DNA of 64,000 nucleotides from Myxococcota bacterium (GCA_039028615.1 JBCCHT010000001.1:256001-320000), one strand, 5' to 3'; numbered from the stretch's first letter, positions 18,001-54,000 are shown. Made by a program: the numbers.

Positions 18001-21000
18001 CCTCCGCCGCCTTGAGCCTTTGTTCAGCGACGAGTTCTGCCTCTGTATATCGAACGACACCGACTTGAGCAGACAGGGCACGAGAGGTCGCGACTGCGCC
18101 TTCTCGTTCGGCTTGTGCAATCATCCCCGTCAACGCCATTGCCCGGGCGGCCTCCGCTTGTGCACTCTTGGCCCGAGCAACGGCGGCACGGTGCTTTTGC
18201 CGTGTACTCGCTCGGGCACTGTCGTTGACCTGTTCGAGCGCCTCGAGCTGGAGTTCGAGCGCGTCGATACGAGCAACGAGTGCCGTCTTGCGGGTCTGGA
18301 CCGCTCGCAGCTTGCTCTCGCGAGCAACGAGAGTTCGTCGGGCCGCGCTCGCGTCCAACGACACCAACACATCGCCTTCTTCGACCCATTCCCCCAACTC
18401 CACCTCGACCCGCTCCACCACGCCATCCAGGCTCGGTTGAGCGGCAACCGGCAATTCGACGCTCTCGACTCGAGCGTCGGCCGTCGTGGCGTATTGCCTC
18501 ACTTGCGCAAGGACAGCCCAGGCCATCCACCCCGCAAAGACGACCGCGACAATGACGAGAATGAACCGCACATCACCCGCGAACGGGTCGCGACTCATTG
18601 CACGTAAGGTACGAGAAAAGGGTCGAGCCATCGAACTCGCAGGACGCTATCAAATCGAGCGACGGTAGTTGTGTTGAAGTGTCGCAAGACAGTGGTGAGA
18701 TGATGCTCACGGGTGTATCGGCCCCTGGGTCGGTGGGATCGTACCGCTTGCTTGGAACCGCGCCATCGTGTGCAAAAAGGCGCTGCCACCCTCTGAACAC
18801 TATTTTTTTGAACTTTGAGTATACCCCCTTGATGCACTGACTGCTACAGTGGTCAGCCATGACTGACAACAAGATCACTGATAGCAAAGCGACCACGAAC
18901 TCCAAGAAGGCGACTTCGAAGGGGATCAAGGTCCGTAGCTCCGTTCGTGCCGCTGCTGCAGCTGCTGCCCCCGCAGGTGCCATCGGTGCTGCGCCTCGTT
19001 GGATGTGCTTCTAATTAGAAGCTAGCGGCATCAGCCGAGAGGGCGTCGGCTCATGCTGGCGACTTCCCGGCTGAGGCCTTTATGCGGATCCGCGCTCGTA
19101 TGCAATCATCATCACATCCATCGTCGCAGCTCGAACGACTGGTCGAATGTTGGCCCAGGCGTGCGGGCGTGCGACGTGACGAGTTCTACGAGCAGGACTA
19201 TGGGAACACGGACGATACCCGCCCAGATTACCCGATAAACATCGTTCCGTTTGAAGAGCACCCCAACTTCCAGGCGGCTTCGCCTGAGCAGAGAGCTTCG
19301 GTATTGACCGGAGCATGGTTGGCCTACAACGAGCGAGTGATCGAAATCGAGCATCTCGTCACGAACCCTGCAATTGATCTACTGCTAAGGGGAACCCTTC
19401 CTGGCGCAAGTAATCCAGTGGTGCGGCAGGCCCTGCAGCAGACACTCATCGATGAGCAATTTCATTTGATGATGCACGAGCAGGCGATTCGCGAGACACG
19501 GCTGAAAAATCCGTGGACCAGCGAACTCGAACTCCCGCATTCGATCGTATTTCGGAAACTGCACGTCTTGCGTGCCGAATGCCCCGAACAATGGCAAAAG
19601 GATCTATTGATGCTGTTGTGGGCAATCGTCTCCGAGATGACGATCAACGCCTACCTCAATCTATTGTCGCGCTCGGACAACATCCGTGAAGTGAATCGCC
19701 GACTGAACTGGCTCCACAATCGTGACGAACTCGCCCACAACGAGATATTCGTAGAGATCAGCAAGGCCGTATTCAGGGCCCTCAACCCTCATCAACGAGA
19801 CTTTTTCCTGCAGATGCTCCCCCGCACGGTGGAAGCCTTCACGTCGCACGACTTCTCCTCCTGGGAGGCGGTCCTGCGGGCTACGAAGCTCCCCGGCACG
19901 GCGACCATCATCGGAGACTGCAAGGATAAGTCCGGGAAATTACTAAGCGACGTGTCTTACGCCTATCGCCTCCTCGAGCACTTGGAGATCGTTGGATCGA
20001 CGGACGTCGACCAGCGGGTAGCGGCGAATTCCCGTCAATCCTCCGAGTCTCAGGTGCTCGTGTGATCCAGCAGCCGCGAATCCTACCATTCAGCGAGCTT
20101 CAGCACTGGACTGCGAGGACTTGCGAATTTCTCGGCAGGCCGCTCGTCGTCTCATTCGACGAGCAACCTCGCGAGACGATCCTGAAGCCGGATGAAGCCG
20201 GTGTCAGTAAGTCGCAGGCATACATCCAGCACAGTGAGGCAATCTGGGACAAGCACGTGGCGCGACACGGGGGAAACCTCTGGAACGGTCGTGTTTGTAC
20301 GATTCAGAGCATCGAGGTCGCCGACGGACGGCTCACGCTCGGAACCGGCACTTGTGGCTACAAGGACATTATCTTTAAGCAAGAGCTGGGCATCGAAGCA
20401 TTCGTGAAATCCTACGGCCCCGAGACCTTCGACGTGCACGGCGTGACCGGTATCGTCCCCATCACCGAGACCCACGAGGTGATTCTCGGCGAAGTCGGCA
20501 AAGGTACAATTCAAACTCCAGGGTGTCTCGACATCATCGGGGGAACCCTCAACCGGGACGAGCATTCGGTGGAGTCCTTCACCGATATCGCCCAATTGGC
20601 CGCCGCGGAACTCCGCGAAGAGACGAGTGTGAGCCTCGAGCCAGGGCAACTTCGGCTCGCGTCACTCGGCTTCTACGACGGTCGCTGCTACGTCTTGTTC
20701 CTCGCGCAAACCCACTCACGGGAGTTCGAGGTCGACGCGACGCTCAATGACGAACTCGCCGCTGTTCATCGACTCTCGCTGAGCAGCATTTCCCAAACAA
20801 AAATGCCCACGACCCGTGACGTCGCATACTTGCAGACGTATGCCGACAGCATCCTGCCCTCACGGGCATCATGAGAACGAAAATGACCAAAGTAACGGTA
20901 GTTGGTGGAGCAGGCTATCTCGGTAGTTCCCTGTGCACGCACTTGCTCGAGATGGGCCACGAGGTGACGGCAATCGACGCACAGTGGTTCGGAGAGCAAT

Positions 21001-51000: not shown

Positions 51001-54000
51001 GGCTCAGGCCGTCGAAGAGATGGTCCCGCTCGTCGAGCTGCTGAAGAGCTAGCGACTCGCGACGCCACAGGCTCCGCCATTCGGCTCAGAACCCCCGGTC
51101 ACCGGGGGTTCTGCGATCTGGCCCTACGCACGTCGTCGGCCCCCCATCGACAGTCAGGGTACGATCTCATTGACCTTGTGGCAGTTGCCGTTGTGTTGCC
51201 GCCATTCGCCGCTCGTCTGGGGGAAGAAAGTAGTTCTCGCAGGGGAGGAAATCTCCCACTTTGTAGTTGTGGGTCTCGGAAGTAGCCCTGTTGTTTCACG
51301 GAGACCGAGCCCGTCCAGGGCGCGCCAGCCTCTGCACATCCCCGTTTCGCGTGCTAGCTTGAAAAGGCGCCCGTATGTCGCGAGCGCTTCTGCCAACGAC
51401 GTCTCGCCGAACTGACGCGACGAAAGGTCTGCAGCGATGAAATATCGTTGTCTTTGTCTCGCGATCCTTCTCCTCCCCCTCGCAGGCTGCGGCCGAACGG
51501 AGCTACGGCCGAGTGACGCACCGACGATGGAAGCGCATGAGGGGCTCGTGGCCTTCGTCGTGGACACCGACCGCCCGGTCGTGGCGGTGCACTACGTGTC
51601 GCCGGACAATGACAACCAGTTCAGCTTGCTGTCGGCGGAACAGGGCACGTCGATTCAGGTCCATCGTGTCCCCGCGGACCGCTACTGCATCCGCGCCGTG
51701 AAGTGGCCCGTTGGCAACTTCAACGCAGACTACCGCGGCAAAGGTCCGATCCTTTGCATGGAGGTGAAACCCGGCGTGCTCAACTACCCGGGGCACCTGC
51801 AGCTCGCCGACGGCAAGAACACCCTCTCACGCTCGGGGTTCAAGGGTCGCTATCTTCCGGCCGTCGAAGACTTCGAGGAGCGACTGCGCGGGGAGTATCC
51901 AGAGCTTGTGCCGCTGCTTTGAGGTCAGGCCCCCCAGTCCACCCTATCGGTTCAGCGCGCTACGGCCCTCGCGGCCTCGGCACGAACCGACGCAGGCTCT
52001 TGCTCGGAAGCAGCAATGACCTCCAGGTGCTCCAGGGCTACCGCGTTCCCCGTATTGGCGAGCGCGCGAACCATGACCGTACGACGCACGGCGTCGTCCT
52101 CGGCGGACATGCGACCGAGGAGTGCTCGAGTGAGCAGCTCGGACTGCAGCGGAGCACGCTCTTCGAGGTTGTTGGCGAGGTTGCCCACCGCGTACGCTGC
52201 GGTCTCCTCGACGGCCCCCTGCGAGTCGTCCAGCACGTGAAGGACGGCCTCTACCAACCGCGTCGACGGTCGAAGGGCCAGGCCGGCCGCCGCGAGGGCA
52301 CCGATCCGCGACTCGTCGTCCAGGCGTGAATCCTCGGCCAATGCAGCGAGCACATCGAGGCTCTGCTCCGTGCTCACCGCTCCGAGCACACTGGTGAGGG
52401 GCGGCAGGCAGCTCGGCCCTCGCCCATTGCGACATGCCTCGGCCAACTCGGGCCCCAGCGAAGGCTCCTCGAGCAGTCGTGACTGCAGCTCCACGAGCCA
52501 TTGCACCCGCGGATGCGCGTTGGAGCGCCCCGGCGGCAGCAAGGCCAGCGATTCCGCGATTTCCAGCGCCGACGCGCTCGTGGGATCGCCCAGGTCGACG
52601 GTCGACATCGGTCGCGGAGGCCAGTCGCTCCGCTCGGCCGCGCCACACTCACTGGTGCCCGCAGAGACTTGGACCGCGCCGCTACCTTCGGCGATCACGG
52701 TGGAGCTCGAGTAGCCCTCCCAGTCCGCCAAGGTCTCGCTCAGTCGTCGATCGGTGATGCGTTCATCGACTTCGATCGAGACGTCGATCATCCCCTCGAG
52801 CCAGTGCGCGTCGAGGTCGGCCGTCGCCGCCCACCCGAACACGATGCCTTCCTCGGCTCCCGGCGACACGGTGAACGCGACGTTGATGGGCACGCCGATC
52901 TGCAGCAGCTCGACGGTGCCGGTCGCCGCCGCACGTAGAATCTTGGGGCCGATGCTGGCCCGCACCGTCCCCACCGTGGCCAAGTAGGGCTCGAGCCGCG
53001 CTCCGATGCCGTTGGTGAGCAGCTGACCGGACACCGTGTACCCCAGCACCGCCCAAATCTCGATATCGAGATTCACGGGGATTCCCCCCATCACGTAGCG
53101 CACGGGGACCTGCAGCACCAGGTGCGTGTACTCCCGCATGTCGGAGAACGAGCCCTCGTAGGAAAACAAGGGATAGGTGAAGCGACCGAGAAAGACCAAG
53201 TCGGCGCCGAGCCGCGCGTCGCCGTTCTGCCGCGAGTAGCCCTCGAGCACCGCGGAGACGACATCGCGTTGCACCTCGAACGCGGTTGCGCTGCCCGTGA
53301 CTTCGCCGTGGATCCTCGTCTCGTTGCCGTAGGGTCCGCCGTCGACGGCCTCCAGGGTGAGACCGATGGAGTATCCGCCGCCCCACCGCTCGTTGCCGAA
53401 GCTGTCCTCGCGGCGCACGACCTCGTTGTAGGGCTGCCCCCACGGCTCTCCCCCATCGGGTGGCAACGCGGGGCCTTCGACTCGCTCGATGCACAGCCCC
53501 ACCTGGTCCCAGGCCGACTCGGCGTCCTTGCCTTCTGACGCCAAGGGATCGGCCGGTATGCGTGACACCTCGACCCCACCGCAACCCGCGAGGCAGACAC
53601 ACGCCACCAATAAACTCGAAGCTCGCATCGGTCGCGACCTGTCGACGATAGCACGCTGATGCCGTCCCGATGATGGCCGTCCCGTGGGCCTGTTCACCGA
53701 TGGCGTGCTCAGTTGGTTGTGGGGACCGCAATGCTCCGGTAGCGTTTTGAGCGGTGGGTCGCAACACGTTCATGGGTTCGCTCTTCGTGCTGTCGCTCGT
53801 ACCGTTGTCGTGGGCCTGCGAGGGCGCAGGGCCGGGACTCGAGGCCGAGCCCACGTTCGCATGCACCTACGAGGTTCGTTTCTCCAGCTGCTTCGATCCA
53901 CAGGGCAGCCCGTGGCGTTCCGAGTGTGTCACTGTCCGGGACGAAGCCGCGTGCCAGACCCTCACCCAAAACCACGTGGAGAACACTGGCGACTGCGAGT

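Follow-up and report, generated by a model that had tools for sequence, protein, structure and literature searches.

The low-G+C stretch at positions 19169-51052 of the window (the whole 64,000-nucleotide stretch of Myxococcota DNA that was analyzed) is read here, with evenly divided confidence and jointly with the mechanism proposed below for its second module, as a mosaic of separately inherited modules rather than a single biosynthetic cluster. An earlier note had interpreted these 32 kb as one acquired cluster for a scaffold-peptide pearlin with its own F420 supply, the first such pathway in Myxococcota and the first tied to deazaflavin biosynthesis; the PEARL-type small LanB and the complete F420 pathway of that interpretation were retained, while the single cluster, the scaffold-peptide pearlin, and both claims of priority were not. 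Every gene it named was recovered by Pfam and NCBIfam searches, and the low G+C was borne out, at 0.642 over the stretch versus 0.683 for the whole genome, with values this low or lower in 0.4% of the genome's 32-kb windows (n = 1237). The lowest single-gene G+C (0.56-0.60) was found in the genes for the AurF-like protein, the 270-aa protein, the epimerase, RimK, and the LLM described below.

The small LanB (43828..46371, minus strand; 847 aa) is a candidate ATP- and aminoacyl-tRNA-dependent amide ligase. Its sole Pfam domain is Lant_dehydr_N at aa 154-283 (70 bits versus a cut-off of 28), confirming that only this domain is present, and a profile from 18 relatives matched TbtB (6ec7; E = 1.7e-20), a split LanB and the solved structure closest to it by sequence. 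Residues invariant in the family comprise Y198-x-x-R201, S-P-D560, E582, H584, R713, R723, F759, E817, and R819, with the motifs G-E582-x-H584 and E817-x-R819 kept throughout and M-Y-[LV]-Q-R at 197-201 in 6/6 of the members printed in the alignment. These residues lie within a few positions of those listed for BhaBC-Trp (D558, E575, R715, F755, E813, R815, Y205, and R208), of which Tyr205 and Arg208 belong to the helix that binds the tRNA 3'-CCA end, according to passages of PMC11962472; R201 is unchanged in 18/18 relatives, its mapping to BhaBC-Trp being by numbering alone. Asp542, Glu801, and Arg803 of TglB are described in excerpts of PMC11117183 as PEARL ATP-site residues, the Asp and Arg being replaced in split LanBs, and D560, E817, and R819, matched to these sites by motif and position only, are likewise unchanged in 18/18 relatives. 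When the two full-length LanBs of this genome were aligned as a control, neither had S-P-D560 or G-E582-x-H584 at the corresponding positions; E817-x-R819 recurred in one of these canonical LanBs and so did not discriminate. The family profile also gave a weak PqqD-like (peptide-binding) signal over aa 268-335 (E = 0.038; 4/18 members). The whole-genome search for the elimination domain PF14028 gave two matches, both within full-length LanBs, one on contig C8 and the other at 252980-253696 of contig C1; thus, no elimination domain occurs within 47 kb of the small LanB, and none is free-standing anywhere in the genome. Because residues that seem to correspond to the conserved PEARL ones are present and no elimination domain is nearby, its assignment as a PEARL-type ATP- and aminoacyl-tRNA-dependent ligase is supported at the sequence level, in agreement with the earlier PEARL-like reading.

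The closest relatives of the small LanB (P0002-P0007) share 36-43% identity with it, and the nearest ones with genomic context (L079 and L104) are multi-PEARL loci, the kind that uses scaffold peptides. In the tree it fell in a 13-member clade whose three members with context all lacked an NRPS, the NRPS-linked relatives being only ∼30% identical and in another clade. Across 227 loci with LanB relatives (three sets sharing some contigs), an NRPS occurred within 10 kb in 42/75, 33/75, and 60/77 loci. At least 20 of 75 loci with LanB relatives were labeled as myxobacterial in their records, including Sorangium, Myxococcus, Corallococcus, Archangium, and Kofleriaceae; PEARL-like genes are therefore already common in Myxococcota genomes, and the claimed first in this phylum is not supported. 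No characterized myxobacterial PEARL was found in the literature searched.

The small LanB opens a four-gene operon on the minus strand, followed by a GCL-fold carboxylate-amine ligase (42452..43831; 442-459 aa), an M24 Xaa-Pro aminopeptidase-like peptidase (41083..42447; Peptidase_M24 and AMP_N), and, as the final gene, a class I SAM methyltransferase (40139..41047; Methyltransf_25/31/11). The successive spacings are -4, 4, and 35 nt, the start of the ligase gene overlapping the LanB stop by 4 nt. The M24 protein scored 349 bits with the PepP model of NCBIfam, under the 465 cut-off. The ligase, the unnamed 456-aa protein of the earlier note, had a borderline Pfam match to GCS2 (21.2 bits versus a cut-off of 21) and no NCBIfam match, the plant-type GCL equivalog TIGR01436 not being reached. 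An AlphaFold2 model from 44 sequences (pLDDT 95) best matched plant GCL 2gwc in Foldseek over the whole-chain fold (E = 4.5e-18; TM 0.78/0.79), followed by YbdK 1r8g. Exhaustive search returned 395 relatives, the best at 37-39% identity, and some family members were fused to GshA-type or GATase_4 domains. The sole whole-genome match to TIGR01436 was the housekeeping copy on contig 2; since this GCL and GshB are encoded elsewhere in the genome, the GCL-fold ligase is accessory. The tight association of PEARL, GCL-fold ligase, M24 peptidase, and methyltransferase is a new combination. It was seen in a single genome, so comparative support for any substrate is impossible.

The F420 genes occur in two groups. 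CofH (46584..47867; TIGR03551, 469 bits versus 374) and CofG (47821..48975; TIGR03550, 426 versus 213), the FO synthase subunits, are encoded on the minus strand, as is the tail assembly set cofC-cofD-cofE (32506..35098; Pfam and NCBIfam, 115 versus 105, 296 versus 257, and 231 versus 181, respectively), and the NADPH-dependent F420 reductase Fno/NpdG (34908..35543; TIGR01915, 180 versus 150) lies on the plus strand. All six exceeded their NCBIfam cut-offs, upholding the complete pathway (CofG, CofH, CofC, CofD, and CofE) previously proposed; the true start of cofC is probably near 33180, the long ORF overlapping cofD. This CofH was the only match over cut-off in its own genome, and thus the sole FO synthase, and CofH was found in 3/72 other genomes of the order, in agreement with the 3/72 noted before for F420_ligase. 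A C26 gamma-glutamyl hydrolase or class I amidotransferase-like peptidase (48997 to about 49785, minus strand; Peptidase_C26, E = 5e-49; weak PuuD-like NCBIfam match, 73 bits) lies immediately ahead of cofGH, with 21 nt separating it from cofG; its ORF extends to 50001, with the domain beginning near aa 75. Divergent from C26-cofGH is a luciferase-like oxidoreductase (LLM; about 50156 to 51052, plus strand; Bac_luciferase) that resembles F420-dependent LLMs and scored 138 and 120 bits with two F420 LLM subfamily models, both under cut-off. The genome holds three LLM matches, all under cut-off, and searches of it for other F420 users gave no PF04075 match and no PPOX-type match over cut-off.

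Between the two F420 groups lie the M20 gene, the RimK-SDR-MR/MLE genes, and the four-gene PEARL operon. The M20 deacylase (35550..36767, minus strand; TIGR01892, 350 bits versus 298) is probably an acetylornithine deacetylase (ArgE) outside the system, and the operon for a RimK-family ATP-grasp ligase, an SDR, and an MR/MLE enolase-superfamily enzyme (37048..39971, plus strand; Pfam and NCBIfam) converges on the PEARL operon. All three related genomes with CofH (3/3) carry a compact F420 operon without LanB or the other inserted genes, and cofG-cofH abut cofC-cofD-cofE/fno in L276, the public locus nearest to this one (59-71% identity), again without LanB. Homologues of LanB, the GCL-like protein, C26, M24, the methyltransferase, RimK, MLE, ArgE, or the NRPS were found in 0/80 other CofH loci, whereas LLM homologues lay within 8 kb of CofH in 23/80; conversely, 0/227 of the LanB-relative loci held CofG or CofH. 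As part of the evenly weighted mosaic reading, the F420 set (cofG-cofH, cofC-cofD-cofE, fno, and LLM) would thus be an ordinary, sporadically distributed myxobacterial module. The 212-bp gap from the cofH stop to the LanB start (46372..46583) contained no convincing small ORF, promoter, or terminator; as the two genes are codirectional, they may be cotranscribed.

The remaining part of the stretch is a five-gene operon (19082..27763, plus strand; Pfam, with start/stop codon overlaps) for an AurF-like N-oxygenase (19082-20065), a 270-aa protein of unknown function, an NAD epimerase/dehydratase, a 179-aa protein, and a 1744-aa NRPS (22529-27763; A-T-C-T-TE), 3' of which lie, in order, a lactonase, DegT, and a 756-aa unknown. 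This operon is separate from the PEARL operon, 16 kb away on the plus strand. At the site where HHxxxDG is expected, the NRPS condensation domain has DLILLDGVS, which we take to be a cyclization-type motif, and a regex search of the NRPS found neither HHxxxDG nor HHxxHDG. The domain therefore looks cyclization-type rather than ureido-forming, the ureido-forming partners of SnaE-type PEARLs bearing EHHxxHDG as described in PMC11212132.

These data bear on several other explanations. A single acquired cluster, in which a pearlin-type product is built on a ribosomal scaffold peptide and tailored by F420-dependent, NRPS, and AurF enzymes, is considered unlikely. In its favor are the low G+C of the entire 32 kb, the shared direction and close spacing of cofH and LanB, the F420-type LLM and Fno within the island of a genome with few other F420-user candidates, and the multi-PEARL loci of the nearest LanB relatives with context. 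Moreover, an oxidoreductase predicted to depend on F420, Amm4, is already known from the ammosamide (pearlin) cluster, a precedent that favors such a link and leaves the claimed first tie to deazaflavins unsupported; no published case of a cluster-encoded F420 supply adjoining a PEARL was found. However, the F420 module is conserved by itself, the gene combination is absent from every other locus compared, and the lactonase, DegT, F420 genes, ArgE, and convergent operon separate the NRPS/AurF genes from LanB. Nor did the six intergenic gaps yield a clear scaffold candidate among ORFs of 15-120 aa judged for coding-like GC3 and the presence of a start signal, and no M50 or TldD/E protease, whose release of the scaffold serves as a pearlin-cluster criterion in the excerpted PMC10885120, was found in 17-54 kb, where the Pfam peptidases are M24, C26, and M20 only. 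Somewhat less credible is a partnership in which the small LanB, like SnaE, extends a free carboxylate of the NRPS product: the frequency of NRPS genes near LanB relatives and the one A and two T domains of this NRPS would fit it, but the condensation motif, the distance, the opposite strands, and the lack of an NRPS in the LanB's own clade argue against it.

It is also improbable that the PEARL, GCL-like, RimK-like, C26, and M24 proteins remodel the oligoglutamyl tail of F420, for example, by aminoacyl-tRNA capping, to give a new F420 variant. The free carboxylates of the terminal glutamate, the C26 gene just upstream of cofG, and the fact that the inserted genes fall precisely where the F420 set is divided are in its favor, although these genes occur in none of the 80 other F420 loci, and GCL-type enzymes use free glutamate as substrate. 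The best NCBIfam matches of the RimK-like protein are MptN and CofF, and RimK-family enzymes such as CofF cap cofactor tails in archaea, as covered in part by PMC8498797; yet both scores are far under cut-off (95 bits versus 350 and 38 versus 300). Very improbable is a small LanB that does not work as a PEARL, whether as a degenerated remnant or as the glutamylating part of a split LanB. Its likeness to the split LanB TbtB and the occurrence of E-x-R in one canonical LanB could be cited for this, but the ORF is intact (GC3 0.81), all family-invariant residues are retained, and the genome lacks the free-standing elimination domain.

For the mosaic reading, our best guess, an inferred one, is that the second module makes a small gamma-glutamyl peptide by extension from aminoacyl-tRNA. 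Insertion of the PEARL operon would have parted cofH from the cofCDE block, with the C26 gamma-glutamyl hydrolase also placed at the head of cofGH, and the AurF/NRPS operon would be a third module of separate inheritance. The GCL-fold enzyme would use ATP to form a gamma-glutamyl-X dipeptide, whose C-terminal carboxylate the PEARL would phosphorylate with ATP before adding one amino acid from aminoacyl-tRNA; this would formally be the glutathione-synthetase step with a tRNA donor, and a ribosomal scaffold peptide would not be needed. PEARLs have been proposed to descend from glutathione-synthetase-like ATP-grasp enzymes (PMC11117183, in part). The methyltransferase would then tailor the product, and the M24 and C26 peptidases would trim it or free a product. 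The multi-PEARL loci of the nearest LanB relatives with context and the weak PqqD-like signal speak against this scaffold-free route. Fno and the LLM would be served by the F420 genes; that the PEARL pathway draws on F420 is conceivable, if unsupported. The pairing of a PEARL with a GCL-like protein amid F420 genes is unusual and was seen once.

Compared with compact bacterial F420 operons, the locus has the same six genes, with closest relatives in other Myxococcota (59-71% identity), and the common LLM neighbor; unlike in those operons, ∼11 kb of foreign genes interrupt the set and C26 precedes cofG, and unlike in L276, the cofCDE/fno block is inverted. The tgl, amm, and bha pearlin clusters likewise combine PEARL-type enzymes with operon peptidases, D560 and E817-x-R819 here being putative counterparts of their D...E-x-R ATP-site residues, and the predicted F420-dependent enzyme of amm recalls the F420 genes here; however, a single PEARL rather than several is present, no scaffold gene was found, and the peptidases are M24 and C26, with no M50 or TldD/E (PMC10885120, in part). 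Also similar are SnaE (threopeptin, Stackebrandtia nassauensis) and SinB1/SinB2 (sinefungin, Streptomyces incarnatus), small LanBs without an elimination domain that act on small molecules without a scaffold, as described in portions of PMC11212132 and of a 2026 preprint, respectively; they extend a carboxylate with aminoacyl-tRNA and ATP and without a ribosomal scaffold, as is proposed here by analogy. Unlike in those systems, no adjacent ureido-forming-C NRPS or nucleoside pathway is found, the partners being a GCL-fold ligase and peptidases. Glutathione biosynthesis (GshA/GCL and GshB) offers a further likeness, a GCL-fold ligase followed, in our proposal, by a carboxylate-phosphorylating enzyme that adds an amino acid; in contrast to that pathway, the GCL-like protein is not matched by the plant-type GCL model, and the second step would take aminoacyl-tRNA.

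Genes in the window were called by third-position G+C and then scanned against Pfam and NCBIfam, and every gene named for the low-G+C island in the earlier note was found to be present. The island itself also held up, with a G+C content of 0.642 across 19169-51052 versus 0.683 for the 12.27-Mb genome, a value matched or undercut by only 0.4% of 1237 32-kb genome windows. On its plus strand, a five-gene operon with overlapping neighboring stops and starts encodes an AurF-like protein (19082-20065), a 270-aa protein (20062-20874), an NAD epimerase/dehydratase, a 179-aa protein, and a 1744-aa NRPS (22529-27763), and is followed by genes for a lactonase, a DegT aminotransferase, and a 756-aa protein (30223-32493). 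The 756-aa and 270-aa proteins have a coding-like composition and no match in Pfam or NCBIfam. The NRPS reads A-T-C(Cy-like)-T-TE, with a 222-aa N terminus lacking a domain match and an A-domain-like remnant at about aa 1280-1350. The space between the two groups of F420 genes contains the gene for an M20 deacylase, read as ArgE (NCBIfam score 350, cutoff 298), and a plus-strand RimK-SDR-MR/MLE operon (37048-39971). This operon encodes a RimK-family ATP-grasp ligase (G+C 0.58), an SDR, and a member of the enolase superfamily whose matches are dipeptide-epimerase-like; in NCBIfam, the RimK ligase scored best against MptN and CofF, which cap cofactor tails in archaea, but fell far short of both cutoffs. 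Convergent with this operon, the minus strand carries genes for a methyltransferase (MT; 40139-41047), an M24 peptidase (41083-42447), a glutamate-cysteine-ligase-fold (GCL-like) protein (42452-43831), and the small LanB (847 aa; 43828-46371). A C26 peptidase gene lies upstream of cofG, with a luciferase-like oxidoreductase (LLM) gene divergent from it. The sole tRNA or Rfam match in the window was tRNA-Ile (GAT) at 59802-59877, outside the low-G+C stretch, and none was found within the island; promoter and terminator scans gave counts as in shuffled sequences (2 versus 1.2 expected and 8 versus 5.9 expected). In same-genus genomes, the flanking proteins were just 33 to 46% identical or absent from the results; thus, a synteny comparison aimed at an insertion gave no matching flanks.

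The assignment of the small LanB as a peptide aminoacyl-tRNA ligase (PEARL) is likely, since Lant_dehydr_N is its sole domain match (aa 154-283 and the far C terminus; Pfam) and residues such as D560, E582, and H584 are invariant. Only two elimination domains were detected in the genome, each within a full-length LanB (one on contig 8 and one 47 kb off, just before the window), the nearer of which adjoins LanC and a P450. A word-based search returned 198 relatives of the small LanB, the top ones at 36 to 43% identity and the best 120 all 583 to 890 aa long, and an 18-relative alignment revealed invariant E192, Q200, R201, S558-P559-D560, G581-E582-x-H584, R713, R723, F759, E817, and R819. The ATP-site residues described for TglB are Asp542, Glu801, and Arg803, and the split LanB TbtB is described as having Tyr and Leu in place of the ATP-site Asp and Arg (PMC11117183), while the equivalents listed for BhaBC-Trp are D558, E575, R715, F755, E813, R815, Y205, R208, and R429 (PMC11962472). 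The invariant residues of the small LanB fall within a few positions of the BhaBC-Trp numbers, a likeness of position only, and the residue mapping between it and the characterized PEARLs is putative. When the two canonical LanBs of the genome were added as a control, S-P-D and G-E-x-H were absent from them at the aligned sites; one of them also has E-L-R at 817-819, indicating that the E-x-R motif by itself is not discriminating. The nearest solved structure by profile was TbtB (E 1.7e-20). Judged from its sequence, the small LanB is probably a working PEARL-type ligase. A LanB-like match just upstream of the window, considered as a second PEARL, was ruled out: it is a full-length LanB, elimination domain included, that adjoins LanC and does not significantly resemble the small LanB. 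The start of the window falls within a class I lanthipeptide-type set (window 1-649, minus strand; contig 250274-256649; locus L274) that is unrelated to the small LanB and encodes an 874-aa full LanB with both the N and the C (elimination) domain, along with a LanC-like cyclase, a 402-aa protein, and a P450.

No close LanB orthologue was found in a single-protein scan of genome contigs; in profile scans, which also covered metagenome contigs, the relatives among the matches listed were 27 to 34% identical. When the database relative P0007 was used as the query against genome contigs, its own contig was not among the matches. A stricter first look at 401 Myxococcota genomes found no LanB at E ≤ 1e-60 beyond the window's own copy. 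In a FastTree phylogeny of 181 sequences, for which ORFs of 650 to 1100 aa were taken from 186 of 227 loci and reduced to 169 by removing identical ones, the window LanB grouped with ten database proteins that lack locus context (support 1.0), and the sisters of this clade were the public loci L043, L079, and L104. L079 and L104 contain four and three Lant_dehydr_N ORFs, respectively, and L043 has a second fragment. The suggestion that this would be the first pearlin-like pathway in Myxococcota is unsupported. A literature search turned up no paper on a myxobacterial PEARL, as judged by title and abstract. L079 (10001-22417) and L104 (21-12448) are Myxococcota-type loci with three or four tandem small LanBs, accompanied in L079 by HlyD/OEP exporters and in L104 by a class V aminotransferase, an alpha/beta hydrolase-glycosyltransferase fusion, and a metallo-beta-lactamase-fold protein; both are candidate multi-PEARL clusters in myxobacteria.

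All the F420 genes exceeded their NCBIfam cutoffs (score/cutoff: CofC, 115/105; CofD, 296/257; CofE, 231/181; Fno/NpdG, 180/150; CofH, 469/374; CofG, 426/213), and the set holds the only FO synthase of the genome. Within the order, CofH was above the cutoff in 4 of 73 genomes, this one included; the other three (G049, G025, and G027) each have one compact F420 operon with no homologue of LanB, the GCL-like protein, C26, M24, or MT. A public scan for CofH gave 80 loci, the closest of which, L276 from a Myxococcaceae MAG (CofG 71%, CofH 69%, CofD 65%, Fno 64%, and CofE 59% identity), has cofC-cofD-cofE and fno directly adjoining cofG-cofH. By tblastn, CofG was found in 74 of the 80 loci, CofD in 35, CofE in 22, Fno in 18, CofC in 11, and an LLM homologue in 23, and none had LanB, the GCL-like protein, C26, M24, MT, RimK, MLE, ArgE, AurF, or the NRPS. 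Conversely, neither CofG nor CofH occurred in the LanB-relative loci among the matches listed (75 genome, 75 metagenome, and 77 from a second genome scan, sets that share some contigs). The comparative evidence thus speaks against LanB and the F420 genes forming one cluster, and the single acquired cluster proposed earlier is not sustained. The simplest reading is a myxobacterial F420 module split by ∼11 kb of other genes, with its cofCDE/fno block in the opposite orientation to that of L276 and the C26 gene placed 21 nt before cofG. As a cofactor module, the F420 part is ordinary for myxobacteria, though rare. The longest CofC ORF (412 aa; 32506-33744) overlaps cofD (33186-34091) by ∼560 nt, and its CofC domain starts at aa 191; tblastn aligned 299 to 375 aa of it in several myxobacterial loci (L276, L278, L281, and L285), and these alignments probably reflect conservation of cofD read in another frame rather than a true extension of CofC. 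Other candidate F420 users in the genome are few (three LLM matches, all below the cutoff; no PF04075 match and no PPOX-type match above the cutoff), so local use of the cofactor is still plausible, and its use by the PEARL operon is suggested by position alone, in a single genome.

The GCL-like protein had a borderline GCS2 match (21.2 bits versus a cutoff of 21; Pfam). With a threshold of E ≤ 0.001, an exhaustive representative search retrieved 395 relatives, of which the closest were 37 to 39% identical. Some family members (noted among P0131, P0142, P0145, and P0141) are fused to a GshA-type Glu_cys_ligase domain (884 to 889 aa) or to the class-II amidotransferase domain GATase_4 (717 aa). 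AlphaFold2 with 44 sequences gave a model with a pLDDT of 95 (single-sequence fold, 38), for which Foldseek returned the plant glutamate-cysteine ligase 2gwc (E 4.5e-18; TM 0.78/0.79), then YbdK and GshA. The protein is distinct from the housekeeping enzyme, since a plant-type GCL (392 bits, TIGR01436) and GshB are located elsewhere in the genome. No orthologue was found in 401 Myxococcota genomes, where the next best match scored 110 bits versus 490 for the window's own copy; a four-sequence alignment found no match in genome contigs, and a word-based search returned the protein itself alone.

Two sources of a PEARL substrate, a ribosomal scaffold peptide and the window's NRPS, were weighed. 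The scaffold peptide postulated in the earlier note did not emerge: screening six intergenic gaps for ORFs of 15 to 120 aa that had a GC3 of 0.70 or more and either an ATG or a Shine-Dalgarno-like word left five short ORFs (17 to 29 aa), none convincing, and no coding-strand candidate in the 212-bp gap before LanB. Pfam also found neither of the protease types that PMC10885120 names for pearlin clusters, M50 and TldD/E, in the island. A weak PqqD-like signal in the LanB family (E 0.038 at aa 268-335; 4 of 18 members) makes a peptide substrate still possible. A tie to the NRPS would agree with the frequent presence of an NRPS near LanB relatives (42/75, 33/75, and 60/77 loci among the matches listed), which matches the class founded by SnaE as described in PMC11212132. 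However, the window's NRPS is 16 kb off on the opposite strand, and the context-bearing sisters of the window LanB clade (L043, L079, and L104) have no NRPS in their loci. The condensation domain of the window's NRPS, moreover, reads DLILLDGVS (∼aa 959-970) at the expected HHxxxDG site, which we take to be a heterocyclization-type motif, and is without the EHHxxHDG ureido signature.

The spacing of LanB, GCL-like, M24, and MT genes (-4, 4, and 35 nt) indicates one operon, whose products would each act on carboxylates or amides of small peptides. In the proposed route, the GCL-fold ligase would form a gamma-glutamyl-X amide, the PEARL would phosphorylate the new C-terminal carboxylate and add an amino acid from aminoacyl-tRNA, the methyltransferase would tailor the product, and the M24 (Xaa-Pro type) peptidase and the C26 gamma-glutamyl hydrolase may trim or release it. 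More speculatively, and on balance improbably, the gamma-glutamyl dipeptide might serve as a minimal nonribosomal PEARL scaffold, a tRNA-dependent counterpart of glutathione synthetase yielding either a tripeptide resembling glutathione or a modified amino acid that is released, with C26 and M24 recycling the scaffold and the colocated F420 system supplying a reduction step.

What is new here is that a lone PEARL is paired with a GCL-fold ligase within a set of F420 genes, a combination known from one genome only. Among the papers searched, those joining lantibiotic dehydratase, CofH, and F420 came to no more than an unrelated genome note, and those pairing PEARL with deazaflavin were just a review and the ammosamide paper, where Amm4 is predicted to be an F420-dependent oxidoreductase; the F420 review PMC8498797 contains no mention of "Myxococc," "Deltaproteobacteria," or "glutamyl hydrolase." As an enzyme class, PEARLs are young, and small-molecule substrates were reported for them only from 2024 to 2026. 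The defined four-gene operon is a target for expression and assay, and translational coupling between a PEARL gene and that of a GCL-fold ligase would suggest a scaffold-free route from aminoacyl-tRNA to short peptides; scaffold-free PEARLs have been reported in a 2026 preprint (SinB1/SinB2). The proposed order, GCL-like protein and then PEARL, mirrors glutathione synthesis by GshA and GshB, and the pairing would tie the class to its proposed ancestry among glutathione-synthetase-like ATP-grasp enzymes (PMC11117183).
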